DNA of 62,764 nt, counting the filler, from Dugesia japonica (taxonomy: Eukaryota), in the NCBI GenBank assembly GCA_001938525.1. It is 5 parts of 5 records of this genome, joined end to end, with 100 filler letters (N's around TTAATTAATTAA, not from the genome) between each part and the next. Parts side by side here need not be neighbours in the genome. Positions count along the whole stretch, not along the records: positions 23,491 to 32,781 come from MQRL01592025.1; 4 more parts are not named here. The stretch is one strand, 5' to 3'. A model generated the notes under the pieces. That model saw only the letters and a list, made by a program, of their open reading frames with translations. It was not told where the DNA came from and made no database searches. How positions within the stretch are numbered: position 1 is the first letter of the stretch; every line of letters begins with the position of its first letter. The position numbers and the translations under genes were made by a program. This document shows positions 6,221-60,209 of this stretch, in pieces.

Positions 6221-8807
6221 TGTTGGGCTGAAATACCCAGGCTGAAAAAAAGCCAAACAAAGGGCCAAAAGGGAAGAATTAATAAAGAAAAAGGATCAAA
6301 AGGAAAGTCAATTAGTAATGGGCATTTACGAGGAAAAGATATGGTAAATACATCAACAAAACGAAAGCACCAGAAATTAGTTATAAATAACCAGTATGGG
6401 TAAATTAAAAATGAAAAAAAATTAGAATACCAAGAAGATGGATAAAAAGATCTTGGATGGATAAATATCATTGATAATAATCAAAAGAAATTATGGAAAT
6501 AATAATAAAAATCGAGAAAAACTACAAGTAAGAAACCATTATATACCGAAAAAATATTAATTAATTTTTAAATAAAATAAAACAAAATTGGTCAAAAACT
6601 TGTTTTATACGAATAACTTTACTCTGCATAATTACAACAGCTTTTAGTAAGTAAATCTGAGAAGGGTTGGTGATGAAGCATTAAGAATGAGATACTAAAA
6701 AATCTTACCATCATCCAGAAGGTTGCCACAAGGATTTGAAGATTGGGCCAATAGGTGATCTGAAAATAAAAATAAAACAAAGAAATAATCATCACATATA
6801 CGCCAAAAATAGACGCCAATAAAAAGCATAAAAGTCCACGAAAAATCTGAAAAATTAACACCAAAACCAATAGTAAACGAGAATTTCAAAGTAAAAATAA
6901 ACAACCAATAGTAATGATGCCGGGTTGCAAAAGGCAGCGCCTTTTGGGGCAAGGAAATCATCAATTTTTGTGAAATCTATTAGCTAGTTTGACAGCGTAA
7001 TAGTAAACTGCTGAAAAACTCTATTGTGGAAAACTCTCAGCAAATCACTACTCATTATAAAGTGTAAGAGCAGTATTTCTATCAGTCATTTTCTAATTTG
7101 AATTTGTTTTGCAATTTTAGTAGAAGAAATTTCTAGTGGTAAAATCGAAAAATCTAGAAAACAGAAAGCTCATAAACGACAGATCTGCAATCAGCTCACT
7201 TTTAACGAAAATTATTAAAAGTAAGCATGTGTTGTTTGATTGTCTATTAAGTTTATGTACTGAGTTTTAGATGAGTAAATAATTGATAAATAAATTGTTA
7301 ATCATAATTTTCTTATTTTTAGCTTTGAAAAATTAATGGATAAGTTCGTATAACAAATTTTAGTTAGAGAAATAATTAATAAATAAACTGTTAACTATAA
7401 TTTTCGCATATTTAGCGTCAAATGATTAATAGATATTCTACTTCCGTCAATGCCGACTCAGCTATCACATACAATCATAGTAACCGACACCGCTGTTATC
7501 TACAACACATAGTGAGAACTACAATAGAAGACACGCTAGGCTCTCTGGATCATAAATAAAAAAGAATTCCCGACAGTCTAACCAACCACGCCTCATAAGT
7601 AATAAATGCAAACTTGACATTCACTTTTAGGGTTCAAAAGCACACACTACCAAATTATGACGTCATCCCATTTAAAGGTCAGGCATACACCCTCCTAATC
7701 GTAAGCAACACATACTTACCCATTATAACAATCACTGAATTCATTAGCAAAATCTGTTTTCTGGTTTACCACATCTGTGAACAGTAGTGTTCATTCACAA
7801 TTACTGACAATTATGTTACTTGGAAATTATGTATTGACATCGATTCGACCATTATCTCTGTGGTCGTTTGGTTTGATATAACTGAATTTTAATTTTAATT
7901 TTGAATCTACCATCATCAATTTAAGTAATTATTTACTTCAATATGTTGGACGTTAAGGACATGTACATTGACAGTACCAATATCGTCGCTATTAACCATA
8001 ATTTATGATCAACATAACTCAATCGATTATTTAGTTCATCATTTATGCGACTTCTTCCCAACCTGTCAGTGTTAATCGATTCCAAAACTTGTTAGAATTC
8101 TCACCCATTTTAACGATAATATTATCATAGCATCACAAATTTTATTTATTCACCATAGCCGTCATTTTAACATGTTATAATTGTTAAAATAATTTGATTA
8201 GGAGTTATGCTTATCAGAACGGGGTTCAATGAAGCTTCTATAAGGAGAGTTAATGTTATCAGTGTGACAGTTAAGGTACAAATAAGAACCTTACCAAAAG
8301 GGGTAATATTATGAAAATTTGCTCCGCTTTAGCACTGTCTGCTGCAACAGGGGATTTTGACAGCATTGCTAATCGAGGATTCTAACGACACCAATCCACG
8401 ACTATTTAATATCTACCCTATTTAGATTTGTCTTCAGAGCTAAGAGATGCCTTCAGAGTTATTCGGAAACAACGTAAAACCGTCAGACTACGGCAGTTGC
8501 TGGCTTAGATTCTATCGCGAGGTAGGATTGAACATCCCGGCGAAACAGACTTAAGTTGTTTCGTTGAAATGTTCCCTTTACCCTCCGGAGTGGATATAGA
8601 CGAGGAATTACCATCTTCAGTTCTATTGTGTTAAATGATAAAAAATATAAAATCAATTAATTTGCTCTTGACTTATTATAATCATTAATTATAAATTTCT
8701 CAATAAAATTTTGTTACATACTACAACAATACTATTAGATGACTAAATGATTTAACTGATTTTATTTGTTTTATGCTGCTATGTTTAATGGATCTTTACT
8801 GTTAGAA

Positions 8808-9227
8808 ATGGACTTTGTTTGGGAAACCTTATACGACCGTCGGACCTATAGGGTCGTTTTTAAAAGATATTGGAACCCACACGATCTCAATGCGGGAGTG
8901 ATGCGTGATTATACTAACTTACCACCCATCGACGTGGATAACGAAAGAGAGTGGGATGCATCCGAGCGAAATGCGTATTATGAATGGAGAGGCCCTGACC
9001 GCACACGGGATGTGCTCCACCGTTATACTATAACAAATGCAACGACGAGTGAGATCACTAGTGAGTGGAGGGATGGCCCCGCGTACCTACTTCTGTCTGC
9101 TGTGCATCTGACACCTAATACCAGGTTGCACGCTGATGTAGGCAACACTCTATGGGACTTGCGGAACAGCGCAAGAGGTGGATCGGCCGAGAACAACGCC
9201 CCGTACTCGGTCAACGAAACTCTATAA
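8808..9227 (+). CDS. Uncharacterised ORF inside the TGTT..AACA element
   Basis: GC-richer open frame of ~139 aa from ATG 8808 (MDFVWETLYDRR...), just after a TGTTAG acceptor-like site; no recognisable family. Confidence 0.5.
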   Translation: MDFVWETLYDRRTYRVVFKRYWNPHDLNAGVMRDYTNLPPIDVDNEREWDASERNAYYEWRGPDRTRDVLHRYTITNATTSEITSEWRDGPAYLLLSAVHLTPNTRLHADVGNTLWDLRNSARGGSAENNAPYSVNETL

Positions 9228-9429
9228 ATGCACCTAAATTTCTATTACATTTTAGCTGTCTGTTAAGGATAATAAAATTTTTTGTAAAATTTGATCTGAT
9301 TTTTTTCTTCTGGATCTTTGATTGACGAATAATTTGAAATTAAGCAGATGAATGTTCGATTGTTTTGTGAGATTTGAATTCTTAATCTAAATGTGTTTTA
9401 ATAGTCATGTTATTTTTTTATTATTCCAG

Positions 9430-10289
9430 TGCATTCGTCGTTAAATAGACCTCCGGTTTCTACCAAGAAAATAGGAGAGTCCAGTGATGAAGGTGAAATC
9501 ACATGGGACCTCTATAAACTGGCGAAGTGGCGCTGGGAAACCAATACTGCATCCGCCGAAGCCAAAGTTCGTTGTTACAAAAAGAAATGTCTAGCTTTTA
9601 AGACAGAGGCCGAGGCATTGCATAGCCAGCAAAGAGTTTGGAAAACTCAATTAGAATCGCTTACTGAGATCATCCGGTCCTACCAAGACCGAGAAAATAA
9701 ACTGATAGACGATATTTTTGAAATTAAGGAGGGCCATGCCGCTCGTGCCCCTTGTGGTGGACAAAGGAGTACAGACATACCGACCGTAAACGTTGTTCTT
9801 CATTTTTGGTTATAAATCATTTTCTTATTGACTAGATTTTTCAATTGATTCTGTCATTTATGTTCAAAATATTGTCTTGAATAAAATTTGGATTATGAAT
9901 AATGCCCTTTATTTATTGCCTAGAATTGCCTTCCCTAACAGCTTGAGGCGCTGCCACCGAATAATGCGTCACTTATTAATAGAAAGACATCTTAAGCGCC
10001 AAGCAGATCGGGCTCTCTTGAAGCAGCGCGACAAGCTAATCAAAAAATTAAATTTGATCATTAAAAAACAGAGTGACCTAGTTCGCCAGACCAAGGAGTT
10101 AGAAGATCAGGTTAAACAGTCGCTTTAGAGGAAAATAGATTTTCTAAAGCAGTACATTTCGAACATATCACGTCAACTGGGGAACCCAACGTGGGTACAG
10201 TGGGACGATAGTTATGACCAAGGGTACTTTATTTTTTAGTTACAGATCCGGCACAGTGGTTAGACCCTGGTGTTCTAGATGAATTGTAA
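9430..10289 (+). CDS. Spliced coiled-coil protein gene(s) inside the element (about three exons, one internal stop)
   Basis: GC-rich exon-like blocks (~9430-9785, ~9924-10222, ~10240-10289) bounded by AG/GT with AT-rich spacers. The helical peptide EIIRSYQDRENKL resembles EVIKIYADREASL at 25442-25711. Confidence 0.5.
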
Positions 10290-10538
10290 TTATTGAAATA
10301 AAATGTAGTTATTATTGATATTTTGATCGGTTTAATTGGTAAAATAATAAGGGAAAATAAGGAACCCGAAACAAAGATGTACGACTGAGAACCTTCCGTA
10401 AAGGTCGAAGGTCAACCGCTCTGCATTGAAGATCTAACTTAGGGGCGTTAGATTAAATTCTTGAAAGGGATCCCCTGAGGGCCCTTTTTTCCCATCCAAC
10501 GTTTACTTTTCATCATCAACTCAGGTGGAACCCCAACA

Positions 10539-12660
10539 ATATTTTAATTTTACATTTTTTTATATTTTAATCCACAGATCCATGTTAATCCAGGAGCAGA
10601 GTAACAATAAGAAGGATCAATATAAAATTTATTATTTGTTATATTTCTAAAGTTTTCCAAGTTATCAACTAAAAGTAATACACCAATTTTCAAATAACTC
10701 ATTGTATAATCTTTTATATTTTTACAATTTAATTCATTCCAATTTATTAAAGCTTGATTATATTCTTCTTCAGTAATATTCTTTTGTTTTATTTTATTAA
10801 AAAATTTATCATGAGAAGGTAATTTAGTTTCTTGCATAATTTCATTTATTTTATGAAACCTGCAGGTTTCGGTTATATAATCATATGGAAATATTCTTTT
10901 TAAAGGTTTCAGATTATATTTATTTAAATTTACACATTATTCTGGTTTTAAGGTTTTACCTAAATCTTGTAATGAATTTGGTAATAATCTTAAAGAGTCT
11001 GAAATTCTAATTCAACCAATTTGAAGAGAAATATATACTTCATCATTTTTACATAAAACATTTGTTCGTTTGGATTTAATGTCTTCTTTTAGAAATAATT
11101 TAGTAAATATTAAATATCAATCATATTTACTTCCATTATGAAAATACATTGGAACAAAATCAAATTTAGCTTTTAAGTTACAACTATTACAAGACAAACC
11201 TCTAAAGTTTCCATTGAAATTATCATGATATGTAACTATATTTTCTGTTAGCTCTTTATTACAATAATAACAATTACAAGTCTCTAGTTCTCTGAGGCTC
11301 TCGAAGATCCTAAAGTTGTTGATATTGGAATATTTGTTTTTAACAATTGTCGAAATTCATTTTCTAAAGATATAAATACATCAATAAACTTTTCTGTTAA
11401 ATCTTCTCCATAATATTCAATATATTCTGATTTTCTTAAATGTTCATAATTACTTGAAATATAAATTCCAAATGCCAAAGATTTTTGTTCGGGCCCCGTA
11501 GGGAAGAGATCTCCATTTAAATTATTAAAAGTCCGCAGTAATAATAAATGGAACTTTATTTTTAAAATGATGTTTATTAAAATATAAATATTTGTCTTGT
11601 TTCATTAATTTCAAATATATTTACTCTAATTCCATAGTCGTTTTCTTTATTAAAATGTTTTACATGATTAATTGAAACTGGTTCATCTTCTACAAAATTC
11701 ATTAGATTTTTAATTTCTTTATAGCTCTGATTATTATATTTTAATGAATTAATTATTGAATGATAAAAACATTTAATGTCATTGTAGCTTACATTAAATA
11801 AAAATTTTGATTTAAATGGTAATTCTTTAAATGTTCCACCTAATGGAGATGTATATTCACCAATAAACATTTCTATTGAATCTATATTTTGCAAAATTAA
11901 TCCACTTTTATTTCCTTCGTATTCTGTCATTCTTTTACTTAGTTCATTATATATTAATTCCATTTTATTTGTTAAATCTTCTTCATTTAAAATAATTTCG
12001 GCTGAAAAATTAATAATTACTGGTTCATCTTTTGTATTCCAATATGTACATTTAATTCTCATTCTTATTTTTAAATTATTAAATAAAGTTAAATAATGTT
12101 TTGCTGAGTTTTCAAATATTTCAAAAGATGGAATTGAAATTACTTCTTCTGTTTTTTCTTCTCTACTTGGAAATATTTGTTTTAAAGAAATTAATTTTTT
12201 ACTTCTTAATATATTTCTTTTGTTAATATTATTTTCTTTTAGATAATCATCAAACTCAAAATCATTATTTATTAATTCTCTATTTACTTTTCATACATTA
12301 AATAAATGTTCTTTTCCTTTTAAATGTTTTTATAACTCGTTTCTTCTTTAAAACCCTTTTCACAAATTTCACATTTAAATAATGTTGCTAAAGAACAAAA
12401 CTTTTCATGAGATAGTAATCCAGATTTACATTTGAAAACTTTGTTACATTTAAAACATTTAAATTCTTTTAGTTCTTTTTCTTTTTCTATTCCACACAAT
12501 TTTTTATGAGTAGTTAATCCAGATTTTGTTTTAAAAACTTTATTGCACTTTGAACATTTGAATTCATTAATAATTTCAGTTGGATTCAAAGGAAAACATT
12601 TTTTAGATTTTTTAATATGTTGATCTAAATCACTTTGTTTTTTAAAAACTTTATTACATT
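10539..12660 (-). pseudogene. Polinton PolB copy 1, N-terminal half (zinc fingers, OTU-like region, EndoVII-like insert, exonuclease)
   Basis: Repeats CSKCNKVFKTKSGLTTHKKLC; NDIKCFYHSI; CYYCNKEL..YHDNFNGNFRG..CNSCNL; YFHNGSKYD; IDPSYCYSAPGLTW. Confidence 0.9.
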
Positions 12661-20237: not shown

Positions 20238-21582
20238 TACAATATATAATATAATGTAAAAAGATGAGATCAATGTTTTGTTTATGTATTTCATTTTTAA
20301 TTTAATTGTCTTTAAACTTTTTGTAAAAATCATGTAAATAAATAAAGTAAAAAAAGAGACATTTTTAATAATATAAATGTTATCTTTTCAAGAAATTATT
20401 CATTACATTAGGGCCAAAATAATCAGCATATATTTATAAATTAAATTTATACATCTGTCAATTAAAACCGATCTTTTAAAAGGTTTTTATTATTTTATTT
20501 ATTTATTTATTTTTATTATGTATGTATCTAAATGCACATTTAGATACATACATACATACATACATAAATAAGTATATAATGAGGTATTGTTCTTTGCAAA
20601 TTAATATATGTTCCCAATAATAATTATTATCGATTATAATCGATCTTAAAAGTTGTTTTACGACATTAAAACAATTTAAAACTCATTTAATATAAAATTA
20701 AAATAGATAACAAAAAAAAATATATTGGTTTTCAGAAAATTAGAAACATGATAGTTACTTTATTAATAATAAAAAGTTATTGTTTGAATATTATTAAACG
20801 AGAATGAACAAAACAAAAAGTAAAATAAAAATATGGTTAATTAATTATTAATATTTTGATAATACTTATGATAAATGGCGTGTTTAAGTTATTCACGTTA
20901 TTCATTTACAATAAATGCATAAAAATTAAAAATGAACCATGTAAAATTGTCCATATTTTTAAAGAAAATAATTGGTATTCATTAAATAATTATTGAAATG
21001 ATGATGGTCATTTTAAAAATTAAATAATATGCTTGCATGATAAATTAGTTTATTTGAAATGATGATGGTCATTTTAAAATTAAAAATTATGTTTACATGA
21101 TGAAATAATTTATTGATAAATACATAGTTAATAATAATTACGATAAAATTTTAAAGCTACAGGTTTTAAAACGTTAAAATTTATTGACTCTTTTTGAAAT
21201 GAAATGTAATGAATTTTAAAATTTAAGGTTTAATAATTAAATTTGATGAATTCAAAAAATCATAAATTAAAAAAAGATTAAATAAAAAATTTAATGTAAA
21301 TTTAATTAATAATTTAATATTTGCATAAAAATTTTAAAAAATGTTATAATTTGAATATATATTTAAAAATGTTTGAAAGATTTAATTAATATTTTGGAAT
21401 AATTATAAAATTTAAAAACTTTGAAAAATAGTAATTTTTTCAAATTTAATGTTTAGTTAGAAAATAATTTTTAAATGAAAAATTTGTCAGAATTGAGAAA
21501 TGTTTAGCTTGTGTTAAATTAAACTAATTAAATTAAACTAAATTAAACCAATTTATGTTATGATATTTTTAGTAGTTTGATA

Positions 21583-22294
21583 CTGGCGCACTGGGTCACC
21601 CCTGCTGATGCAATCACATACAATGGATCTTAAATATATGCAATAAGTTATGTAATTGTTTTGTGGGGATTATAATGTGCGCACATGATTATCACATTAA
21701 TGTGATACATGATTATTGTCATAATTGGATAATAGTTATATAATCACTTTGTGGTTACATAATACTAGGAATTACATCATAATTAAAACATTTTTTATGC
21801 ATTCACTCGAAAAATTTGATTTTTCACAGAAATTCAGCAACAAAACCCATTTTTGTTTAAATTAACCATTTTTTAAAAATCTTCAAGTGTTATTCCACAA
21901 TTCATATTTTTGTTTAGATATTCCATATTTATAAGTACTGATTGCAAATATGTTGTACGATAATTATCTTTTCCAAAGTTTTGAGTATGTGTTTCTCGAT
22001 AATAACTGTGTTTCGATAGAGTTATTGATTTGACATTAAAATGATCGAATGTGAGATTGATGTTTTATAAATTCCATTATATCAATCTCCACTTTAAAAT
22101 GCAGCTAGAATAAAGTTAGGCAATCGTAAAAAATGATGTAACTGTGACTTAATTCCTACTATTATGTTATCGCTGAGTGATGTTGTAATCATGCGCAAAC
22201 ATTTTAATCCCCACAAAACGATTACATAATTTACTGCATATATTTTAGAGGCATTGTATGTGATTCCGTCAGCGGGAGTGACCATGTGCGCCAA
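21583..22294. mobile_element. Foldback/MITE-like element with ~200 bp imperfect terminal inverted repeats, flanked by TA
   Basis: 21583-21790 (CTGGCGCACTGGGTCACCCCTGCTGATGCAATCACATACAATG...) matches the reverse complement of ~22095-22294; TA at 21581-82 and 22295-96. Confidence 0.7.
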
Positions 22295-23359
22295 TATTCA
22301 TCTAATCTTTGTGTTTGTGTTGTTTTATAATAAGTTTTCTCATGGAAACTGTTGGTCTTTTCATTCAATCAGGAGTATATCAAATATTTTTTTACGTTAT
22401 ACACATTTTGTTATGAATTTCCTATCTTTTTGGAATAACAAATACCACTCTTACTTTTTCTTTTTTGAAGTTCTCTTAAGGTTATTTCGCCTTGGTAATC
22501 GTAGCCGGCTAATTCCTTTCAAAATTCTTTAATAAAATTTATGCTTCTTTTAAAATTTTAATCGCAAAGTGAATTATGATAGCGAAATTAGGAAACTTAT
22601 TGTTATAACGTATCATAATTATTCTGTTTTTGAATATATTCATATAAACCAGGATTTTGTACATTACCATAATTTAATAAATTTAATTCTATAATTTACA
22701 TATAAATACTAAGTGGTGATGTATTCTAAAGTTGTTATTATGAATAAATGATTTTTAATAAATTTTTATTTGAAGTAAAATAGTTTAACAAAAATAAAGA
22801 ATATGAAGTATACACGACAATGTTAAACGGCGTAAATATAGTTTTATTTTGTCTATATTGAAATGTTAGTTTGAGATTATTTATAGAAAATTTTATCATT
22901 GATTGTCTATACATACCAATATACAAATAATTACAATAAAAACAATTAGAATAAAAGCAATTATCGAAGTAATTGGATAAAAATTACCATACAAGATTTA
23001 CTTATGATTTCACGTTTTTCTATATTTTACTTTATAAGTCTTTGTTGTTTTGAACATAAAATCTACAATTTTTATTTAATTATAATTTAAAATTATTTCT
23101 AGATCTTCTCTTTGATAGCATTATAGACATATTTTCTATATTCTCTTGTATTGAGTACTAAAACCGTAATTATTTTGTTAGTTTTTTCACAACATTTTTA
23201 AAAAATTTTCTCTAATTTTCCCCTCATATACACACTTCAAATTTACAGGCATATAATGTAACATTGTAACATATGACCCGAAATTTTATATTGCATTCAA
23301 CAAATTTAAATAGTATGATTGTCTAAATTAAACATCTCTTCAACATATATAACTTACTA

Positions 23360-23490: not shown

Positions 23491-25441
23491 GGATAGCCAT
23501 TATTTAAAAATTTATTTTTTTATCAACTTGAGAGAGATCAATTTCATTTCTTCATTTGAAGATGGTCTCTCAGCTCGAATTAAATAAATAATCAAATTTG
23601 TTAGAAAATCAAAATAATTCGCAATAAATGAAAGCAAATTGTTATAATTGAAACTAAATTTAAATTTAATTTAATCAATAAAAAAATTGGATTTTAGAAA
23701 AATATTATAAATACCCCGGATAAAAATCAGATAATTATCTACGTGAAAGTAAACTTCCGATTCTAAATGGATGCACGTGAAGTATAAAAATACCTCCACT
23801 TCAAAAACTAGTATTCAATATAAACCCATCGAATCGCTCTCCTAGCCAGGTTGCAAAATATAAATCATTCAAATTCTCAATTCGGTCAGTAGGAAATTAC
23901 ACAGTATTCAATTCAACCACAATTTTAGTGAAGAAATTTTAAATTGACTCCCAGAAAACTCAACAAAACAATTTCTCATTCATTTAAATAGACAAGAGTC
24001 ACTAAAATAAAATTGTGTGCGATTTATCCATATTCTCTCCTGCCCAATCAGTATTGTGATTTACAGGGAAAACCAGTTCCAAGTTGGCGTGTCAAAAATT
24101 ATCATTTTATCCCGAATAAGTTTGCCATCCTTTCCCCACACTAGTCGAGTGCAGGGACAGAATCAATTAATCTCCAAATATTATTAACGCAACACATAGT
24201 CAAGAAGAAACTTTTCTACAATTGCAAGAAGTTTTCAGTGCAGAAACAAGACATAAAATTCTGTCAGAGTGTTTTTCATTCACTTTTTCATTCAGCAAAA
24301 ATTTTAAATTGACAACGAATTTCTAATTCAACGAGAGAAGAAAATAATCCGCCATATTGGTCACCATTTTGATTTCTAATAAGAATTTGTCTATTTTTAT
24401 TTAATTTTTGTAGCTTGGTTCGATCTCACCCGATTACTAAATTATGATTATCTTTTGAAGAAATAAGAAGAGTTTTTATTACCATTTGCTAGATCTTCCA
24501 TTAATTAAAGAAAGCAGTATCCATGAAAATTAAATCTCAGAATAAATAAATAGAATAGTTACGAGCCACGCCAATTTTCTTGTCAAGTACCACCTACAGA
24601 AAATATGACGAAAGAAAATAATATTCTTCCTAATATTCTAAAACTTCTTTTTTAGATGATTTATTTTACCGCTTTATAAATGTTGAGATACTTTGGGGGA
24701 TTAATTGCCAAAATAAATCAACAATGCGTGTTTAAATTATTGATTTTAATGTCACGATAATCCCAGTATTTTATGGTTATAAAAATTTCCTTATATGACT
24801 TAATATGTTTATTATAAATAAATCAATAGAATATAAATAAACTACATAGTGCTCCTTATTTTAAAGAATAAAGAATTAATTTTTAAAGTTATATCACAAA
24901 TTTCTCTACAGGTGTTATAAATTAACAGTTTGTTTATGCGTGGTTTTTGCAAGATAAGATTTTTAGTGAAATTGTGAAAAGATTCAAATTTATTTTCAGC
25001 TTTTAAAAAGGGTGAAAGTAATGAATTTTGACTCGGTATTTATACCAAATCGCTATTCATTATTCTCTCACGATGTTTGCATTAACTTTTCAAAACAAAT
25101 AAGCACCTTTTAAAAAATAAATTTGTTGGGTTTTTAGAATTTTGATGTTATGGTTTGCTATTACATTTTTACACTTTCAGTGTTCATTCAGTAAACAGAT
25201 AGGTCGTCTAGGAGCATACCTAAAAACCACAAGCGTTTGTGTCACCTCTGTGACATGCCCCTCTTTTCCTCAGGTTCAGCGCGACTTTGCGGAATCGCGT
25301 CTTACCATCGCTTTCTTGAATTCCAACTAACCTCTAGCTCATTTGCTCAGTATTTATTTATGATAATGGCAGCATAAAAATGGGTCATACATAACCAATA
25401 ATTACCAAATACCAAGCAACATGACAACGATAACGATTTAT

Positions 25442-25711
25442 TCATTCTACACCTACATCTAGGTCTACGGTATTATCCTTCACTTTTGACTCCTCGGATG
25501 GATCCCGATACAACAGCCACAGTGACCTCAAATTATTGAACAGTGACGCCTCGCGGTCGGCATATATTTTTATTACTTCGGCCATTAAGCAGTTGGCCTG
25601 CTGTAACGCTAGCTCCTTTTCTTTCAGCTGTTGATATTTGTCATTGTGCTTAGTGATTTGGCTCTTCAGCTGTAACAACTCATTTTTTGTGTCCGACGCT
25701 CCTCCTTCCAT
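25442..25711 (-). CDS. Coiled-coil ORF/exon in the second element
   Basis: NELLQLKSQITKHNDKYQQLKEKELALQQANCLMAEVIKIYADREASLFNNL; similar to the 9430 exon. Confidence 0.55.
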   Translation of the reverse strand: MEGGASDTKNELLQLKSQITKHNDKYQQLKEKELALQQANCLMAEVIKIYADREASLFNNLRSLWLLYRDPSEESKVKDNTVDLDVGVE

Positions 25712-26403
25712 TTTTTCTGCATCGATAGCACGTCCTTCATACTGACCTTACTTTCCGTTGTTTTATCCACTAAATTATAATGAGAATTAAGAAAATATTG
25801 GACACCACAATCGATTTAATTAATTAAATAACACCAATATTATAACTAAACTTATAATCGACTGAAATTTAAGAACACTGGTTTGTTAGAATCACTTAAA
25901 TACATGACTTATTATTGTTGCCCAGTTATCTCCATCTAATTCACCCATAATTATATAATTGCTTAAGAACGACATTTATCTGTAAAAATTTGTAAGTTTT
26001 GATCTCGGTAACAAAATTAAACACTCAAATATTATAACACAAATAAATAATATAAAAAAAAATAATTTCCTTTAACGAGGAACACCGATGACAACACCTC
26101 TGCCTCTGCAGTATTGTTTTACTTTACTTGTGACCTACATATCACACTCTCTAACTCGTATTAACAACAAAACAATTAACGCGAACTTTGCCATAAAATC
26201 AAAATTACACTGAGAAACTTTTATTAATATTAAATTTATTGTTCATTCGTATCCCTCTAATCCATCTGATTCTGGATTACTTCCCGCTCCTCGATCGCAT
26301 CGTCTGCCTCTGCAGCACTACTGAGTGAAAAAACACGAACGATTTTAGGCGAAGTGCTAGATAACTCCTCCTGGAGTTGTTTGATCTGGTTCTGTAGCGA
26401 CTC

Positions 26404-26637
26404 TCAAGCCCGTTCCAATTGACACTCTAACGCATTTATCAGATTATTTTTTACCACCAATTGTAGCCGGATCGTCTCGTTATCCGCCTCGAGGCTCTTG
26501 ATCTCATGAGAATGCCTCTCTGCTTCCGCTCTTATCATGTTCCTCACTTCGTTCCACTCAATATAATATCGGCCTACCTCGTCAATGTAGGGCCAGATAT
26601 AACNAGGCCTTTGGAGATTGCGTCTACCTTTAACCAT
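26404..26637 (-). CDS. Coiled-coil ORF/exon in the second element
   Basis: GC-richer frame with a heptad-like stretch (HEIKSLEADNETIRLQL...ALECQLERA) that continues helical past one stop. Confidence 0.45.
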   Translation of the reverse strand: MVKGRRNLQRPXYIWPYIDEVGRYYIEWNEVRNMIRAEAERHSHEIKSLEADNETIRLQLVVKNNLINALECQLERA

Positions 26638-27495
26638 CTAATAAACCAGAAACAATTAAATAAAGTAGTGAAATAATACGAGCACTAAGTTGACAAAATC
26701 ATTGCGGGTTAAATGTAGAATAATTTTCTTCGTAATATTTTACATGAATTCATTGTATTACCTAAATGGAATAATATAATGAATACAATTATAGGTGAAT
26801 TATTATATTATTGTTATCGTAACTGGCATAGTCAAACCTTTAGGTGGGATATTTTAATGATAATGTAATAATGTATAATTAGAAAAATTATGTTTAATTA
26901 TCAAATGAATTANTGAATAATTAGTAAATCAATGAAAGTTACTTTGTTCTGATACTTTTATTAACATTAAGTAGCTTATTAAGAACAATAAAAATAACAA
27001 AAATAAATACTTAGCTACCAAANNNNNNNNNNNNNNNNNNNNNNNNNNNNNNNNNNNNNNNNNNNNNNNNNNNNNNNNNNNNNNNNNNNNNNNNNNNNNN
27101 NNNNNNNNNNNNNNNNNNNNNNNTGCCAACTCATAATTTACGGATAATTCTACCAGATTCATTTTCTGGATTTTCTCTACGATAACTCTCATTTCTTTCC
27201 ATTCAGACTATTCGTGGCTAAGTAGAACCTTATAACATTTAGACATTCATTACTGGTCGGAATACCTCAGGAGCTCGATCCATCCCGGAAAATTTAAGTT
27301 TGGGCAATGGCACTCGTTTGCATAAATTCCAAAAAATAAAGTAAAACTATATATGAAGAATAAAAATTACTTTCAGTTTATCCAGAGTCCAAGATCCAAT
27401 ATTGAGAAATAATATTTTTTCACCAGTAGTAATTGATTTAATAATTTTTAACTTTACATCGTTGATTTATTAGTTATAGAATTTAATCAAACAAA

Positions 27496-27588
27496 CAAAA
27501 TTTTTTAATACTCTGCTTTTGAAAGTTAACCAAAAATTTTTTTAATACTCTGCTATAAAATTTAACAAAACTTTTTTTAATACTCTGA
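27496..27588. repeat. Three ~35 bp tandem repeats near the 5' end of the second element
   Basis: CAAAA(T)nAATACTCTG occurs three times. Confidence 0.75.
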
Positions 27589-29938
27589 CTGATTTCCTCG
27601 CGTCAGCCCGTTTTATCTCACCTAGGATAGATAGATTATTTGGCTCTCGATTAGCCGGCGAATCATGATGCTTATTTAATTATCTGGGCTTTCTGATTGG
27701 CTGCTATAGTCCTGAATTCGGTGTGCATACCTCAGTGTTTCTGCACACGAACTCAGACTTTTGAATTCTGGTAAATCTCGGTCATCACCTCATTTGACCT
27801 ATGTGATGCATCTGTTAGTTTCTAGGCAAAGTCCTTGTCTGAACGTCTGGCGAATAATCAGTTTCTTTGTTTATGTATGACTGCTATCATCAGATTCAGA
27901 CAAGGCAAAAAGATGACTGGACCAAAATTTACTTAATTCTCAAATAATATTAAACGCTAATTAGCGTTATTTATAATAAATAAAACGGGTTGTAGAGGTA
28001 CTTCTAATATATAATTATATTATTGTAGATTATTTTTATTATTTAATTCTTCATTCTCTTTCAGCTCTTATAAATTCTATTTCCGTATGATAAAATTTGG
28101 GTCCTCTACGCCCGAGTTTCGATATTTTGACAACTAATTTTATAATAATNNNNNNNNNNNNNNNNNNNNNNNNNNNNNNNNNNNNNNNNNNNNNNNNNNN
28201 NNNNNNNNNNNNNNNNNNNNNNNNNNNNNNNNNNNNNNNNNNNNNNNNNNNNNNNNNNNNNNNNNNNNNNNNNNNNNGGGACTACAATTTCTATTTCTGA
28301 ATGTGTTTTAGCCCAACAAATTAAAGAAAGTTCTAAAGATTGAATTTGTTAATAAATAAATAAAATTTCGTTTATGAAAAATTAAATAAATAAAATTCTT
28401 TTGATCTAAGCTTTTATATTATTTTGTTAAATTCATTTCGTTTGATTGAATATTAAATCANCAANTAAACAGAAAAACAGAAAATTTTGATTTCTGAAAT
28501 TAAATAAATGAAAATAGAATAACATAATAGAAAAATAAAATAATAAGACTAATTCACCAATTTGATATTTATAACCCTACTTCTACAGTTTCGTAAAATA
28601 AAATTAATAAAAAGAGATGATAAGATACATTCAGGGTCAGCAGATAATATACATATTGTCAGGTATTATAATGTCGATTGTCACACAAATATTGAAACTG
28701 TTGATCACTGATTTGGTTGATTTGGTAAAAATCTTGTCTGGAATCATTTGATTGATTTGATTCGAATATTATATTTTGTGTGTTATGTGTGCGTGCTTAT
28801 ATATTTATTATTGTGTATATTGTAGATTTATGAATATGTGTTTAAGGTTATTTTTCCCCAACATGAAAAGAAGATGCCATGATCAACCGCTACTAACAAT
28901 TCATCCTATAATTGTATTCACACGAACACTCGATTGTCTGATATCTAGATTTGATTGAAAATGAACAATGCTGTGATTTAATATTTATTATTCAATAAAC
29001 ATATTGGTTTATTGACGTTTATTTTACTTATTTTATTTATATAGAAGAGTGTGTGTTAGGTATGATCAATCAAGAGCTTCTATCGCTTTATGTAGATTAA
29101 TTAATTTATTTTGAACTCAAAGTGTATGGGTACACACCTTCACTTCCCGGAGGATTCANNNNNNNNNNNNNNNNNNNNNNNNNNNNNNNNNNNNNNNNNN
29201 NNNNNNNNNNNNNNNNNNNNNNNNNNNNNNNNNNNNNNNNNNNNNNNNNNNNNNNNNNNNNNNNNNNNNNNNNNNNNNNNNNNNNNNNNNNNNNNNNNNN
29301 NNNNNNNNNNNNNNNNNNNNNNNNNNNNNNNNNNNNNNNNNNNNNNNNNNNNNNNNNNNNNNNNNNNNNNNNNNNNNNNNNNNNNNNNNNNNNNNNNNNN
29401 NNNNNNNNNNNNNNNNNNNNNNNNNNNNNNNNNNNNNNNNNNNNNNNNNNNNNNNNNNNNNNNNNCAATAACACCAAATCGAAAATCCACAAAGGTTTAT
29501 ATGAATATTGACAATATATAATTTTCAAAACAAAATAAATTTTCGACAAAGCTTGGCGAATGTAGGTTTATCAAAAATGATAGTTTATTTTATAAGATCC
29601 TCAGAAAGTATATTGTTGTTCTATAATGTAGTAATTGAGAAAAAAAATAAAATAAAAATATGAATTTGAAGCTACAAAAGCTCAGAATGAAAAACACATT
29701 TCATAAATGTAAATTTGAATGTATAGAATATTGTAAATAAAATTGTAAAAACAAATTATGTAAAATAAAAATAATGAAATAAACAATTAAAAATTGATTC
29801 ATGATAATAAAAGTGCATCTAATAGGGAAAACATAAATGATAATTGATATAAATTGATATATTCAAAAACCTCAAATCATCATTAATAATGCGAGATATA
29901 TGGGGATTACCGACTATTTTGAGAGGAAATTGAGTTAT

Positions 29939-30842
29939 TTTAAATTTTAAAGGGGTTCGAACCCAAACCCTCTGTTGATAGCGAAAATGTAGAGTTTGCG
30001 TGCGACCAATGAAATATCGACTTAACCAAATTATTTGATTGGATAATTGTCTTATGAATTTTAGTTGATGAAATATTTTATTGGAGAATACTTTTAAAGT
30101 CAATTTTGAGTGTGTTAAATTATTATTGGTTGGTACGGTTAATTGTTAGAAATTTGTGTAAAGTCGATATGTATGTGTGCATAGAAAGTACTATATAAAT
30201 GAATGCANTATTTGTAAAATCCAGAAGTTTTGTGAAAAATATTTGAGTGGAATTTTGTGTCAAAATTTTTGAGTGAATTTTCGAGTGGAAATTTGTGTAG
30301 AATTTTTATTAAATCAATAAAATCTATTTGAAGATTTTATTCTATTCGATTTACAGTAATAATTANNNNNNNNNNNNNNNNNNNNNNNNNNNNNNNNNNN
30401 NNNNNNNNNNNNNNNTTTAAATTTTAAAGGGGTTCGAACCCAAACCCTCTGTTGATAGCGAAAATGTAGAGTTTGCGTGCGACCAATGAAATATCGACTT
30501 AACCAAATTATTTGATTGGATAATTGTCTTATGAATTTTAGTTGATGAAATATTTTATTGGAGAATACTTTTAAAGTCAATTTTGAGTGTGTTAAATTAT
30601 TATTGGTTGGTACGGTTAATTGTTAGAAATTTGTGTAAAGTCGATATGTATGTGTGCATAGAAAGTACTATATAAATGAATGCATTATTTGTAAAATCCA
30701 GAAGTTTTGTGAAAAATATTTGAGTGGAATTTTGTGTCAAAATTTTTGAGTGAATTTTCGAGTGGAAATTTGTGTAGAATTTTTATTAAATCAATAAAAT
30801 CTATTTGAAGATTTTATTCTATTCGATTTACAGTAATAATTA
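29939..30842. repeat. ~427 bp direct duplication either side of an N gap
   Basis: 29939-30365 is essentially identical to 30416-30842; probably an unmerged scaffold overlap. Confidence 0.85.
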
Positions 30843-31547: not shown

Positions 31548-32749
31548 ATGAGTCAATTACCAAGATACGAATCAAATGATGACGAAATGGATTTTTTATG
31601 AACTGAGAATGTAAGAAATAAGAGTAGAAAAGTGAGAGATAAGTGGATTTTATGCAATAAGCATAACAATGCAAATGAAGCTACATTGTTTATCAAAAGT
31701 GAAAAAATATGGTCTTATTTCTACACAAATAAAACAACAGATGGAGATAAAGTTACTTATAGATAAAATAAAGTAAAAGCACATGAAACACAATGTAAAG
31801 CTCAACTATATTTATTATATCATGCTGAAAATGAAGATATTTCTGTGTATAAAACTACATGTAAAAATACCTGTAATGGTAGAAAAAATATTGGTTTACG
31901 AGATGACGTGAAATTATTCATAAACGAACAAATTAAGAGTGGTGTGAATAAACCAAAAACAATTTTATCAAACATTGAAAGAAATGGTTGGCAAGTTCCA
32001 AAAACAAATCAACTTAATAATTATTTAAAGCAATATCGTGAATAAAACTTCGGTGTTTCAACTATTAGTATGGGTGAATTAAAAAGATGGTGTGAATCAA
32101 AAAGTATATTTATTTATGCATTTATTTTATATCATGAAATTTGCGATAATGATGAGTGTGAGGTAAATTAAATAGACAGATTGATTCGGGGAATTTTTTT
32201 TTGGCAAATCAATAAAAAAGTAATAATTTNNNNNNNNNNNNNNNNNNNNNNNNNNNNNNNNNNNNNNNNNNNNNNNNNNTTCGGTGTTTCAACTATTAGT
32301 ATGGGTGAATTAAACAAATGGTGTGAATCAAAAAGTATATTTATTTATGCATTTATTTTATATCATGAAATTTGCGATAATGATGAGTATGAAGATATAG
32401 AGGATATATAAAATGATGATCAAAATTCAAAACAATATGTTCGTTTTTGTATTACTGCAAAACGTTTACTTCAAATTGCTTCAATTTCAACAGCAGTTCA
32501 CGCAGATACTACTTATAAATTGAATTGACAGGGTTATCCAGTATAAATAACAGGTACAACTGATGCAGATAGAAAATTCCATGCATTTTGTCTTGCAGTG
32601 TGCAATTGCGAAAAAGCAGCTGATTATAAATTTTTATTTGAAATGGTGTCAAAAATATTTATAACAAGGAATTCAAACCAAAAGTCATAATAGCAGACGC
32701 ATCATAGAAATGGTTTTGAAGCAGTTTTTGGAAATAATTACAAACGTAT
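31548..32749 (+). mobile_element. Mutator/MULE transposase pseudogene
   Basis: AVHADTTYKLN*QGYPV, GTTDADRKFHAFCLAV, FKPKVIIADAS, NGFEAVFG; has stops and frameshifts, and is cut at 32750. Confidence 0.85.
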
Positions 32750-32781
32750 TGTTGAGGTTCCACCTGAGTTGAGTGACACGA
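32750..32781 (-). mobile_element. End of a third copy of the TGTT..AACA element, inserted in the MULE
   Basis: TGTTGAGGTTCCACCTGAGTTGA matches the reverse complement of 10516-10538 (TGTTGGGGTTCCACCTGAGTTGA) at 22 of 23 positions. Confidence 0.85.
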
Positions 32782-33492: not shown

Positions 33493-36400
33493 TTAATTTA
33501 ATTTTCCTTTTAATTTATCTAATCTTAAATGCCACTGATTACAAACTTCACATTTAAATTTATTTCCATGAGGCCATGTTCTTATTCCATTATCTTCTAT
33601 TAATCTTTTGTCGTCATATCCTGTTAAAGCAATCTTTTTTTGCTCAAATAATTCAATTTCATGCTTATTTGATTTTAAACTATGATTAGTTCCATATATT
33701 ATTTCTTTTGGGTTACTTAAAACTTTATCATAATGTTCCATTTCTATTTTATTAGTTTTAGAAACTCCTTTATGTTTTGTTTCTATATTTCGGGTGTCGC
33801 CCCCGGCTTGAGCTACGCGATCCTGAATAATATAACTTTTTGTTTTAATAAAATTACATTTAACTATTTCAAAATTTGGTTTTTCATCTTTCATCTCAAA
33901 TAAATTATTTCCTAATAAACTTGTTACTTTGTTTAAATTCTCTTGTCCAATTATTTCTACAAAAATTGAATCTGTATCTGAATAATGTATTTTATGTTTA
34001 TTTGGTTTTGCTTTATCCATCTGATTATAAATAAAGTGGTAAATTACTTCTTTAGCATATTCTAAAATAGTAAATCCTATGTAAGGAAATTTATTATATT
34101 TTAATTTTGTTTNNNNNNNNNNNNNNNNNNNNNNNNNNNNNNNNNNNNNNNNNNNNNNNNNNNNNNNNNNNNNNNAACTAAATATTTTACTAGATTTAAA
34201 ACTAATTTTACTTGCAAACGTTTGATAATCTTTATCTGAATCTACAATTACAACATTATATCTATTTCTAATAATTTCTAATGTTTTTCCATAGAAAGCA
34301 TTATTTAATAATTTAAAAAAGTAATCTCCAAAAACATTGTTATTTCTTTTTGCTTCATTTCTTTGATCAATATTAAATTGAATGTAATCTTTTAACCAAG
34401 GTTTTGTTGGCATTTTATATTTAGAATGTACTTTTAATATTTTCATTCCTATAGATAAATATAAATCTAATGTTGATCCTAAAATAATAAAATTTTGTTT
34501 GTCAAATTGATTTAATGTTAATTTAATATTTTTCTTGCTCAACTTTTTATCAAAAAATAATTGATAAGGAGCCAACATTTCTTTTGTAATATTTAATGGA
34601 TCTGGTGCTAATGGAAAGTATTTTGTCTTTTCATGAATTTCTTGTGGATATTCCAAATCTACTTCATAAATGTAATTTATTTTATCTGATGATTTAGTAT
34701 AATTTAAGTCTCTGCATTCATAGATTTCTCCAGTTGGTAAGGGTTTAGTCATACAAGATGCAAATAATGAATTTTCATCTAAATATTTTAAAAAAGTTTC
34801 TTCTTTCCAATTTAAGGGATAAGTTTTATTTTTAATAAATGAAAATAATATATCTCCAACTTGTGCTTTGTTTAATTGTCTAGTTCTTCCAAATCTATTA
34901 TTTGATTTTTGGTTTTTTGAAAATACTTGCCTCTCTCCACAAACTCCTGAATATCCTCCTCTATCTCCTCTTTCAATTTTAATAAATCTGTCATAAGTTT
35001 CTTTTTGTGCATATTTTAATTTTACTTGAGTAAATTTAATTCCAGAATTCCAAGTTAGACCCGGAGTTGAATAACAATAACCGGAATCAATTTGATAATT
35101 ATTTAAACATGTTTCTCTAAAATTCTCAAAGAAATCAGCTAAAATAATTACATCTAGTTTCATGTAATGCAACATATAATCCCATAAATTATTAAAACGT
35201 TGGAAATCTTGTATAAATTCATTGTATTCTTCAGTTATTTTTTTTGTCTAAATATATTATTAAAATCTTCTTTTGTTGGAACTTGGTTACTTTTTAATAA
35301 TTCAATGACTTGATTAATATTTTCTCCTTTGGAAATGCTATTTTCTTTGCTTTTAAATTAAATGATTTTAGATGATTATAATTATTAGATTGATTTAACA
35401 TTTCNNNNNNNNNNNNNNNNNNNNNNNNNNNNNNNNNNNNNNNNNNNNNNNNNNNNNNNNNNNNNNNNNNNNNNNNNNNNNNNNNNNNNNNNNNNNNNAG
35501 TATGAGGAATTATCTTTTTAACTTTACTCGGATATTTACTAATTAATTCTTTGAAAAACAGATGATTATCATGACCAGATGCATTGTGAAAATAAAAAGG
35601 TATAAATAAATTCTTTATACATTTATCTTGTAAATTACATTTTGAATGAGAATTCCCTATTAAAGTGATCGTGATCAATTATTTCTTTATTACAATATTT
35701 GCATTTTAAGTGAGCTTGTAGGTGAGCTTGCTCACCTTCCCCAAGTTTAGGAACCTCTCCATTATAATATTTAATTAATTTATTTTCTTAAATATCTTTT
35801 AATTTATTATTTAATTCATTTAAAAATTCAAAGAACTCTTCATGAATATTTTCTCTTAAAAATTCTTTTTATTCATTTTCCGTTAAATTTGGATATTTAC
35901 TCACTACATAAATTCCAAGTGATAAAGGTTTTTGTTTCTTTGTATTAATATTAGTCCAACTTTCAAAGTCACCATAAACTACAAAAGGTAATTTGTTTTT
36001 GTAATAATAATTCTGATAATAATAACTAAAATGTTTTGAAAATATTATGTTTGATATTTCATGATTAATACATTCTTTCTGATGATTAATTAATAAATCT
36101 TTGCTATAATAACAATTCATACATCTAATATACAAATGATTTTGATGACTGTTTGTTGAATGAAATACTTCTACATTTCTACATAAAATAAAATGGTTTT
36201 TATAAACTAATAAATTACATTTATTCTGCTCTGGTTTGAGTTGAGTTTCATAATGAGAAATATATAAAGGTTCAAGTTGTTTAGACTCAGTTACAATAAA
36301 TACATTTACTTTAAAATCATTTAATTTTCCAAATTTTTTAACATAATCTATATTTACTGGAAATTTTATTCCATGGGACCCTTTGGAATTGGTTTTTATT

Positions 36401-42649: not shown

Positions 42650-44456
42650 GTACACTTCATAAAGAGACTTGCTTCATGTTTTTCGATATTATTGCGATGC
42701 TTGCGAATATAAATTGTTTAATATGCGAAAGTTATTGAGAAGTGAAGCAATAAAAACTGCAACTAGAGATAAAAATTGTACTTAATCTTTGTTGTTTTAA
42801 TATTTAGAATAAATGTATTAGTTTTCAAATTTTATGTTTCTTGATTATTTGCATATATTATTCACATTATTTTGTCTATTTTTATTAAGTTTTTCATTAA
42901 ATATTTATCGATGGTATCTAAATTATAATTTAGTAAACCTAATGAATAGTCATAATACAATTGTTAATAATTATACTAAAATATAATAATGACTGATGTT
43001 ATTAATGTCCTTAAAAATTTTTGCTATCAATTTACTAGTAACTCTCTCTCGCTTCACTTATAATAATTGCCATTATCACCAGGTGTATAATGCTTACGAA
43101 AAACTTAATATTGTTAACAATAACGAACTTTCTCAAATTTATGAAAAATTGATATTGGTTTATAAAAATTTAATAAAACTTGTTACTTCATATTAAAAAT
43201 AATATTTTTTAAAAAATTTATTTAACTTCAAATTACTTAAAATTTATTTGTTTAAAAAAATATATATTTATTTATAAGTTATCTTTAGTCTTATTAGTTT
43301 TCTTTAAGACTTTATAGGGTTTCAATAGTAATTTTAGATTATCTATTAGGTTTATATGTGCTTATTGGATTTTTAAATTGTTTTATAAGGCTTTTTATAT
43401 AGTAATTTTGATCTATCTATAGGGTTTATTAGATAACATATGGTTTCTATGAAGATTTATTTATTCTTTTAAGTTTTATATAGGGTTCTTTGATACAGTA
43501 ACTTTAAGTTATATAGAGTTTTATATAGGATTTTTATGGGATTATATAATCTGTTAAACTCCACATATAGACATGATAAACTAATGTACATAATAAATCA
43601 ATACATACACTCCTCTCTTTGAATATTTTTTTAATAGATATATTTTATAATAAAAATATATAAAAACTCTCCACTTGGAAACAATACACCGTAACTATTT
43701 AATAAAACTCTAGCGTTTTAATACACAAATGATAGTAAAATGTTCGGTGTATACACTATAAAGTCAGAATGAAGAATTGATGTATTGATCGATTTAAAAT
43801 TCAATTTAATACCAATAAAGCAATAATAGAAGTATAATTGAACACTTAAATTGCAGATTTAAACCGCTTACTGGCATTGAATTTAAAAAACTGTCTGATT
43901 TTCTTGAGGCAAATTTAAAGAAATTAATTAACTTTTCAAATACAGAATTTCAAAAGGATTTTTTTTTAATAGTTCATGTCAAAATGCTTCGTATTTATGC
44001 CATCATCGCAGTTGCATACAGAACTTTGGGGAAATAAAAGACGATGTTGGTTTCAGGTTAATCGAGAAATTTGCCCATTTATTTCTCACTCAAGTGACTT
44101 ACAAATTTTTGTACATTTTTCATCATTTAAAGTTGAAAACTGGGAGATTATTAGTATTTGGTATAAAAATCAAATTTATAAATATAAAGAATTCATTTTA
44201 AATCTTCCAAATAAATACAGTTCTTCAAATTGGTGCAACTCTAACGATAATAAACAGCCAAATATAGCCAAATGTAATAAAATAAATTCTAATAAGAATG
44301 GTTTAGTAATAGAAAATAGAATTATAAAATATCGTAAATGGAGATTTTCTTATCTTTATTCAGATGTTGTTGATATTAGATTTGAAAATATGAAAATAGT
44401 ATTTGAAATTCGTTTAGAAGAAATTGTTACAAGTTATTGTGGATTTTCGGCTTTTA

Positions 44457-45739: not shown

Positions 45740-46543
45740 TATTCAAACAATGACATTTATTGAATCTATGTATAGAATTGGAGATTTCATTTCTGAATTA
45801 TCTCTAGGTGTTGACTGTCCAGAAAACGCTCAATTTTTTCCAGTTTTTAAATTTTTAAAAATTCTAATATTCCTCATAGAGTAAAACGAGCTATCTTTGT
45901 GTTTACGAGAAAGAGTACTAAACCGTTAGGCAGACATTTGGAATTTCAAGGAAATGGTCGCAATATGAAATTTACTTCAGTATTTCCAAATTATTTACTT
46001 TATTTTAGATATATAATTTCTTTATACAATTATGATTATATATTTGATTATATAATTCACGATAGTGGTGTCATTGACATATCAGTGACACCAACTGGTA
46101 GATGATTTTAGTGATTTACCATTGTAATTTGTTGTATTTGACGTAATAATATAGTATTTTTATTGATTATGGTGTTAATTTTGTAGTTTTTGCGTGAAAA
46201 ATAGTTGTCTTTTGTTGTGATTTGTTAGTGTTTTAGTGTTTTAGTGATTTGTTAGTGAAATTATCATTTTTAGTGTTTTTAGTGCTTTTTAGTAATTTAG
46301 TAATTTAATAATTTAATAACTTAATATTTTGAAATTTTAGTGAAATTTATAATTTTGTTTTTTAAAAAAATATAATTTTATGATTTTTTAAAAAATATAA
46401 ATAATTTAGTTTAAAAGAAAAAAATGATTTTGTTTAAAAAATGATTTTTACACTAATTGAAAAAAATTCAATTAGCGTAAAAATGATTTTTATATTAATT
46501 AAGAAAAGTTTTTTTAGAATACACTAAAATATCCCTCTAAGAA

Positions 46544-58704: not shown

Positions 58705-58715
58705 ATAATTAAAAA

Positions 58716-60149: not shown

Positions 60150-60209
60150 TACAAAAAAGTAGTTTTTGATACAAGATACACTTTAAGACCAAATATTAAT
60201 TAATAAAAA

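Follow-up and report, generated by a model that had tools for sequence, protein, structure and literature searches.

The window analysed here, a 62,764-nucleotide stretch of five joined Dugesia japonica contig parts, raises the question of whether one contig (MQRL01592025.1) carries a mobile element related to another in the same stretch, where that element ends and what kind it is. The reference element, A (6221..10538, +, 4318 nt), is flanked by an ATAT duplication at 6217-6220 and 10539-10542 and splits a Maverick pPolB gene (best search match 44%); the duplication is exact, as the split gene leaves 48 nt, or 16 codons, between its aligned halves. The second element, B, lies on a separate contig, as the original prediction had stated, the parts being divided by N44-TTAATTAATTAA-N44 spacers. 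It was described as a 4720-nt divergent relative of A at 23599-28318. Element B is a real insertion with a revised extent of 25124-28318 (−), about 3.2 kb (3195 nt including 231 N), and an AATT duplication. It is a decayed insertion of mobile DNA, an older copy within a multi-copy family, and 1.5 kb shorter than first described.

The right end of B was confirmed, and the left end was moved. The 5'-type terminus TGTTGGGCTAAAACAC at 28303-28318 (−) agreed with the 5' end of A at 14 of 16 bases, where 0.03 such matches were expected (none of 100 shuffles had 2 matches), and one AATT copy followed directly at 28319-28322. The other copy, originally placed at 23595, was replaced by AATT at 25120-25123. 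When 23491-28311 was shuffled 3000 times, the AATT/TGTTAG motif (AATTTGTT) of the 23599 end turned up in 34% of the shuffles, a chance level, versus 0.1% for AATT/TGTTGGG (AATTTGTTGGG), which is present at 25120; the boundary most likely does not lie at 23599. The 3'-type terminus at 25124-25149 (+, TGTTGGGTT...) is common to other copies and resembles the 3' end of A, so the 3' termini of the two elements do not differ as had been proposed. Among public contigs, a 1162-nt contig of another copy switches to foreign DNA at 25120-25124; a copy bounded there and not at 23599 is one of the two outcomes originally named as refuting the proposal. We placed B at 25124-28318 because of the rare motif, the likeness to the 3' end of A, a coincident GC step and this foreign joint.

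At all six sites left of 25124, depth per contig was 12-28; inside B, it exceeded 30 at 22 of 25 sites. The bins left of 25124 are repetitive too (depth 82-1765, overlapping the lower B bins of 48-400), and the segment at 23599..25119 is most likely older flanking repeat DNA outside B. An abundant repeat at the start of the contig breaks at 23581 rather than 23599, and its continuation was not found within the window. Among the 15 of 68 joints listed, seven began at 25143-25149 and none was an empty-site joint, which says nothing either way; no loose ends at 25124 or 28318 were present among the 24 of 1941 listed. The read evidence bears on the 25124 side, and none of it on 28318.

With these boundaries, B reads TGTTGGG...CCCAACA with an inverted part of only 7 nt, and A and B each carry one TGTTGGGCT end and one TGTTGGG(G)TT end. 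A longer TIR was not detected in register (A, p = 0.26; B best match, p = 0.04, off register), nor were the two direct terminal repeats of an intact LTR element or TRIM (B, p = 0.65 and 0.13; A, p = 0.12), 128 N near the B 5' end masking part of the comparison. Neither long end repeats, inverted or direct, nor an enzyme gene was seen in B.

Inside B, a CCAAT-box motif at 27694..27702 (−), 617 nt from the 5' end, may mark a promoter; A has three CCAAT-type 9-mers at 526-683, against a background of 0.18 per kb. An ORF-like, coiled-coil block of 126 codons at 26257..26637 (−) contains an in-frame stop at 26404-26406, and a GC-rich exon-like block behind a TTTAG acceptor at 25442..25769 (−) encodes a coiled-coil peptide with a Y-x-DRE motif and has a frame change near its start. 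The first clear ORF begins 1.7 kb into B, not the ~1.1 kb given before. An AATAAA at 25353..25358 (−), 235 nt from the 3' end (242 nt in A), would serve for polyadenylation. In one poly(A) library (~25% read), the exons were covered at a depth of 0-3 with no splice joint. Copy signal was much higher in a 5'-proximal segment at 27807..28138 (bin depth 11,000-21,000) and in a ~100-nt core at 25206..25305 common to a very abundant repeat (73,000-116,000, versus a single-contig depth of ~5-15). The core matched no Rfam family and its folding was not unusual (z = −0.4 and −1.6), so no ribozyme is claimed; an Rfam scan of 1-33000 found nothing within A or B.

Kinship between A and B is plausible, judged from sequence features: the end types, the 4-bp A/T duplications and the offsets of the CCAAT box and AATAAA. 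Both share a layout of two-type 7-bp inverted ends, a CCAAT box at 0.5-0.7 kb from the 5' end, coiled-coil exons and an AATAAA ~240 nt from the 3' end. Interior DNA was not alignable between them, as originally noted and now confirmed by alignments. The conservation claimed at the protein level was not recovered. TBLASTX, run as had been suggested, gave a best E of 0.10 and, with masking, a best score of 24.0 bits, versus 22.6-26.7 bits in 20 control chunks; this is the second outcome originally named as refuting the proposal. B-against-A comparisons by TBLASTX, tblastn, blastn and composition-aware tiles yielded nothing clearly above controls; the best tile scored 29.8, and control maxima reached 29.7. 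Colinear alignment of the 5' parts (p = 0.014) failed the tile test and was dropped. The two quoted coiled-coil peptides do exist, on the same relative strand in A and B; their match is marginal, with 7 of 19 identities in a pair chosen post hoc (uncorrected p = 0.023 with plain shuffles, 0.11 with heptad-block shuffles). The best peptide pair reached p = 0.002 against plain shuffles, yet its order is swapped and it is generic coiled coil. By eye, the spacing from W to Y-x-DRE is alike in both elements, spanning the B frame change. Selection on the cargo is likewise unsupported: the frames of both A and B carry in-frame stops, and that of B also a frame change. The two insertions are linked by ends and layout, and not by provable protein similarity.

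The reading we favour, with a probability of about 0.5, takes B as a solo LTR, the remnant of a giant Gypsy-type retrotransposon in what is likely a planarian host. A full-length element would have been inserted by a Gypsy-type integrase through a 4-nt staggered cut in A/T DNA, and recombination between its two LTRs would then have removed gag-pol, so that a single LTR of 3-4 kb stayed behind, flanked by the 4-bp duplication. Its long U3 would hold the CCAAT promoter at 0.5-0.7 kb, along with short coiled-coil exons that are spliced together and end at the AATAAA ~240 nt from the 3' end; element A may be a solo LTR from a distant sister family. Consistent with this, the ends are of TGTNR type (5'-TG...CA-3') with nothing significant in register past 7 nt, a pattern of Gypsy LTRs and Ginger according to the available text of PMC2836005, and a single unit is flanked by a duplication (AATT in B; ATAT in A), 3-6 bp being typical of LTR elements in the accessible part of PMC10045372. 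Candidate promoter and poly(A) motifs lie at like offsets in A and B, but the one library read gave them no transcript support. Giant Gypsy elements in planarians are longer than 30 kb, of which up to 25 kb is internal, implying LTRs of some kb (PMC6431247, as available). Neither a full-length parent nor a primer-binding site or polypurine tract was seen in the window or in the short public contigs. Protein-coding exons inside an LTR are unusual, and this counts against the solo-LTR reading.

Other origins were weighed against the same evidence. It is unlikely that A and B are stand-alone LTR-like units of 3-4 kb without a gag-pol interior, carrying their own promoter and coiled-coil genes and mobilised in trans by an integrase of Gypsy or Ginger type. 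The two complete copies in the window each form a single unit flanked by a duplication, segments near the ends greatly exceed the interior in abundance and no parent was seen, but solo LTRs would look identical with no new mechanism required, and the short contigs used could easily have missed a parent. It is likewise improbable that B is composite, with an inverted, abundant solo LTR or MITE of ~205 nt at 25124-25328 contributing one end, while the 28318 end comes from a long element that is unrelated or truncated. The core is ~100-fold more abundant than the interior; among the six RNA-run loose ends listed, two bear AATAAA and a CCCAACA-type end ~25 nt right of the core, so the last 205 nt of B may be a separate short unit; a decayed CCAACT lies at 25323-25328; and the contig joined to foreign DNA at 25120-25124 ends at 25327. 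Against this, depth at 25309-25336 stays at 86-574 in register with the window and contigs at 25336 extend to 27-32 letters from their ends, so the junction is common to many copies, and AATT flanks 25124 and 28318 rather than 25328. A composite moving as a whole would be the same as a stand-alone unit.

A non-autonomous Ginger2/TDD-type DNA transposon with cargo appears quite improbable. Its TGTNR ends, 4-bp A/T-rich duplication and length of 3-7 kb, as given in the available text of PMC2836005, are shared by B, whereas the 45-297 bp TIR, RTATAY target and transposase described there are not: the TIR of B is 7 bp, the targets are AATATT and AAATTA (RTATAY at neither of two complete sites, weak evidence as it is a preference), and no transposase remnant was found in the scanned A and B ORFs. 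The 4.7-kb version with conserved, selected cargo is very unlikely. AATT/TGTT is indeed present at 23595-23602, the DNA left of 25124 is repeated as well and the W to Y-x-DRE spacing is similar, but the motif and depth evidence, the repeat break, the broken frames and the missing protein match oppose it, and the contig joining foreign DNA at 25120-25124 largely refutes it. Mavericks are neighbours in the window, one of them hosting A, but their 5'-AG ends and 6-bp duplication (available part of PMC6839031) were not found in B, nor were long TIRs.

If B is a solo LTR, as we prefer, it is a matter of ordinary repeat annotation. In short motifs, both elements resemble the planarian GLT/GLT2 repeats, which we take to be of class LTR/Gypsy. 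GLT and GLT2 of Schmidtea mediterranea are known here from probes (Repbase names; Table S1 in the available material of PMC8532177), compared by eye over the first 400 nt printed. Within these, GLT2 has an A/T-rich stretch ending TTTAG/TGGA followed by a GC-rich coiled-coil exon, as B has at 25769, and the CCAAT context of GLT resembles that of B. Among motifs picked post hoc, an 11-residue GLT2-probe motif had its best six-frame match (7/11) in the coiled-coil exon of A (0 of 20000 shuffles), and two GLT motifs occurred in order at the B CCAAT box; a 17-nt GLT motif and a GLT2 primer gave no match. The similarity is at motif level, making B at most a distant family. Burro/GYPSM1 giant Gypsy elements (PMC6431247, as available) likely come from the same host group, with TG...CA integrase ends and LTRs that by implication span some kb, but their extra domains lie in the internal polyprotein and the small exons of B inside an LTR-sized unit; this likeness is by description, not sequence. 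A literature search on Burro-1, SLF, GLT_SM/GLT2_SM and GLT returned no description beyond the available texts of PMC8532177 and PMC6431247.

Under the solo-LTR reading, the interest lies in multi-kb planarian LTRs that apparently have small coiled-coil genes of their own; this would supply a structure for the GLT-type repeats, which serve as tissue-specific markers of PIWI loss in the available text of PMC8532177. The corrected boundary of B makes the search for a gag-pol parent direct. If there is truly no such parent, integrase-type elements would have a new mode of travel, bearing on the LTR-to-Ginger route proposed in PMC2836005 (as available). A broader and doubtful proposal would place A and B in an old and diverse 'LTR-only' class, 3-4 kb long with integrase-type ends, their own promoter, spliced coiled-coil genes and no gag-pol, spread in trans, one of whose ends may come from an inverted short LTR; such elements would form a living link from LTR retrotransposons to Ginger-like DNA transposons, with relatives switched on tissue by tissue upon planarian PIWI loss.

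Searches with the exon peptides returned no homologue at thresholds of E ≤ 0.1 or 1, a single low-complexity repeat protein, only sub-threshold coiled-coil families in Pfam, Atlas leads that were absent or below the recognition bar, and no metagenome loci; viral and metagenome contigs, scanned for DNA patterns, gave no matches or chance ones. Planarian proteins are few in the searched sets, so the lack of homologues shows no novelty. An AlphaFold model of a 139-aa ORF of A, made without an alignment, had a pLDDT of 36 and was not used. A third terminus at 32750..32781 (+), at a contig end within a MULE-like remnant, was identical to the A 3' end at 22 of 23 positions. An rRNA fragment, identical to a Schmidtea 18S probe at 39 of 40 positions, suggests that the host is a planarian.

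The original prediction had given elements A and B a common 5′ terminus, and this was recovered: the 5′ end of B (28318, minus strand) matched that of A (6221-10538, plus strand) at 14 of 16 positions (0.03 expected in the window), with AATT directly beyond it. The opposite end of B had been placed at 23599 (AATT followed by TGTTAG) and described as differing from that of A. When 3000 shuffles of 23491-28311 served as the control, AATTTGTT, which occurs 25 times in the window, was present in 34% of them, whereas AATTTGTTGGG, found once, at 25120, appeared in 0.1%. With 25124 as the end, A and B alike have TGTTGGGCT at one terminus and TGTTGGG(G)TT at the other, so that the 3′ termini are of the same type. 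G+C rises from 0.27 to 0.42 at 25124. The distance from this end to the closest AATAAA is 235 nt in B (803 nt if measured from 23599), and the equivalent distance in A is 242 nt; with eight such hexamers in B, one near the 235-242-nt offset has roughly a 5% chance. The earlier observation was thus partly confirmed, with the boundary moved to 25124. In other copies of a very abundant repeat at 23491-23581 (bin depth 129,000-207,000), the sequence takes a different course past 23581, so that a real breakpoint lies 18 nt before 23599.

Three contig sets (X1, X3 and X4) and a poly(A) run (X10) were aligned to 23491-28460 at 85% likeness, and the rows listed covered 40 of 640 differences, 15 of 68 joints, 24 of 1941 loose ends and 24 of about 15,800 pieces. 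Among the pieces listed, a 1162-nt contig aligned over 25120-25327 only and its first 953 nt were foreign, indicating that another copy ends where the end of B is placed. Seven of the 15 listed joints connected 25143-25149 with 25204-25228, showing that further copies have the terminal stretch in common. To the left of 25124, all six listed sites had a depth per contig of 12-28; inside B it exceeded 30 at 22 of 25 listed sites (non-independent sites, after removal of 9 of the 34 inside rows that were neighbours or extreme-copy sites). The summed depth on the left side of 25124 was 82-1765; this DNA is therefore repeated too, which counts against the boundary. No listed difference, joint, loose end or piece bore on the 28318 end, and no empty site occurred among the 15 of 68 joints. 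Within B, contigs 86-91% alike had a depth of 60-92, compared to about 5-15 for single contigs, so that a younger subfamily with several nearly identical members exists and B is an older copy.

The TGTNR ends and 4-bp duplication of B point to a Gypsy-type integrase; both features are common to Gypsy LTRs and Ginger (PMC2836005, PMC10045372). In each element only 7 nt of the ends are inverted, and the ends are not direct repeats. CCAAT-type 9-mers were found three times in A (526-683 nt from its 5′ end) and once in B (617 nt from its 5′ end), against a background of 0.18 per kb. Short inverted ends and a duplication around one unit, with a 5′ CCAAT cluster and a 3′ AATAAA, make up solo-LTR anatomy. 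We give a probability of about 0.5 to B being the solo LTR of a GLT-like family of giant Gypsy-type elements. Insertion by a Gypsy-type integrase, the step supported by the ends, would have involved a full-length parent, followed by LTR-LTR recombination, the route by which solo LTRs arise (PMC6839031); the CCAAT box would serve as promoter and the exons would be spliced. Planarian giant Gypsy elements exceed 30 kb, with an internal part of up to 25 kb (PMC6431247), which would bring LTRs of 3-4 kb within range.

The closest named candidate relatives are the transposons GLT and GLT2, whose annotation comes from Repbase; of their probes (Table S1, PMC8532177), we used the first 400 characters of each table cell. 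In this portion, GLT2 has an A/T-rich stretch ending in TTTAG directly before TGGA, then a coiled-coil exon, and B looks alike by eye at 25769. An 11-residue GLT2 motif, chosen as the best of about 70, had its best six-frame match in the exon of A at 9540 (7/11; next best outside A and B, 6/11), and none of 20,000 shuffled motifs reached 7 in five peptides. Two gapped GLT motifs fell in order at 27656-27700, the CCAAT box of B, a circular match because the motifs were built from what GLT and B share. A GLT2 13-mer matched 25206-25305 without extension; a 17-mer from GLT had no match, nor did a primer for GLT2. GLT is presumably filed in Repbase as LTR/Gypsy. The sequence likeness makes kinship of A and B with GLT/GLT2 a lead, not membership. 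A literature search found no fuller description of either in the text it covered; the supplementary PDF of PMC8532177, outside that search, may hold one.

Two GC-rich minus-strand blocks of B showed a heptad pattern, with a hydrophobic share of 0.67-0.73 at a/d versus 0.24-0.30 (best phase chosen, without control): 26637-26257, interrupted by a stop at 26404-26406, and 25769-25442, in which the frame changes close to the start. Blocks like these also occur in A, where one is interrupted at 10126 by a stop. The protein-level conservation proposed earlier was not borne out by TBLASTX of B against A (best E 0.10; masked, 24.0 bits versus 22.6-26.7 for 20 control chunks). The similar peptides, 7/19 identical, stood out from plain shuffles (p = 0.023) but not from heptad-block shuffles (p = 0.11); another A-B pair reached p = 0.002 against plain shuffles, yet in swapped order. 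The exon peptides had no homologs in protein, Pfam and metagenome searches, in sets with few planarian proteins. With matches within controls or marginal and no homologs found, selection on a coiled-coil cargo is unsupported. About 25% of X10 was read, and 526 of 543 reads lay only partly on 23491-28460; in that share, depth over the exon blocks was 0-3 and no splice joint was found there. Over 25483-26644, X1 reached up to about 2-4 times the depth of X3 and X4, the opposite of what other repeats showed; this is possibly a strain-specific expansion, depth being no measure of copy number.

Other readings were weighed against a solo LTR. B might be an LTR-only unit moved in trans, which we consider unlikely. 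That B is a composite with a short inverted unit, equally unlikely, was raised because two of six listed X10 loose ends carry AATAAA with a CCCAACA-type end immediately to the right of 25206-25305, whereas a depth of 86-574 runs on in register across 25309-25336. This 100-nt, GC-rich core is very abundant, turns up in a different setting in some poly(A) reads, and could be part of a solo LTR or MITE family of 205 nt whose ends are likewise TGTTGGG; like 27807-28138, its abundance is far above that of the interior of B.

A Ginger2-type element would share the TGTNR ends and 4-bp duplication of Ginger, but Ginger2 TIRs measure 45-297 bp (PMC2836005), against 7 inverted nt in A and B; this reading is slightly less likely than the two above. 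The original extent, 23599-28318 with a selected cargo, draws on the repeated DNA left of 25124 and is highly improbable given the frequency of its end motif in shuffles, its distance from AATAAA and a TBLASTX score within the control range.

Element A is a clean insertion, because the pPolB halves leave exactly 16 codons between them: alignment to the window's other pPolB runs as far as residue 75 on one side and resumes at residue 92 on the opposite side, and the intervening flank, minus one ATAT, is 48 nt. Inside A, 7265-7435 is a tandem duplication (80%) of an intron-like 79-nt unit. A third end at 32750, at a contig end, had 22/23 identities to the 3′ end of A and is inserted in a MULE-like transposase remnant (31767-32749; Pfam E 0.04, under the cut-off).

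The five contigs, joined by N44-TTAATTAATTAA-N44 spacers, are A/T-rich; planarian genomes exceed 70% A/T (PMC11410931). Maverick/Polinton genes lie on three of them: pPolB (33493-35247, minus), capsid (57832-58500), integrase (58713-59723), A32 ATPase (60207-61004), the split pPolB of contig 1 and pPolB pieces near 47300-48750. An isolated 18S rRNA fragment (about 1137-1345; Rfam RF01960, E 5.5e-59) matched a Schmidtea mediterranea depletion probe at 39/40 where it departs from the Rfam consensus, and these probes are reported to be effective in other freshwater triclads too (PMC6884822), which makes a planarian the likely host without fixing the species. A decayed reverse transcriptase at 2269-3700 (RVT_1, E 1.8e-19), then RNase H/integrase-like text by eye, appears to be a Gypsy-type remnant 2.5 kb from A. 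A Mariner transposon with 38-nt TIRs and a minus-strand transposase occupies 44455-45741. The 172-nt inverted pair at 21573-22304 (75% complementary, spacing 388 nt) is likely an old MITE, and the near-identical duplications at 29939-30715 and 32049-32392, flanking 50-N gaps, are likely scaffolding artefacts.
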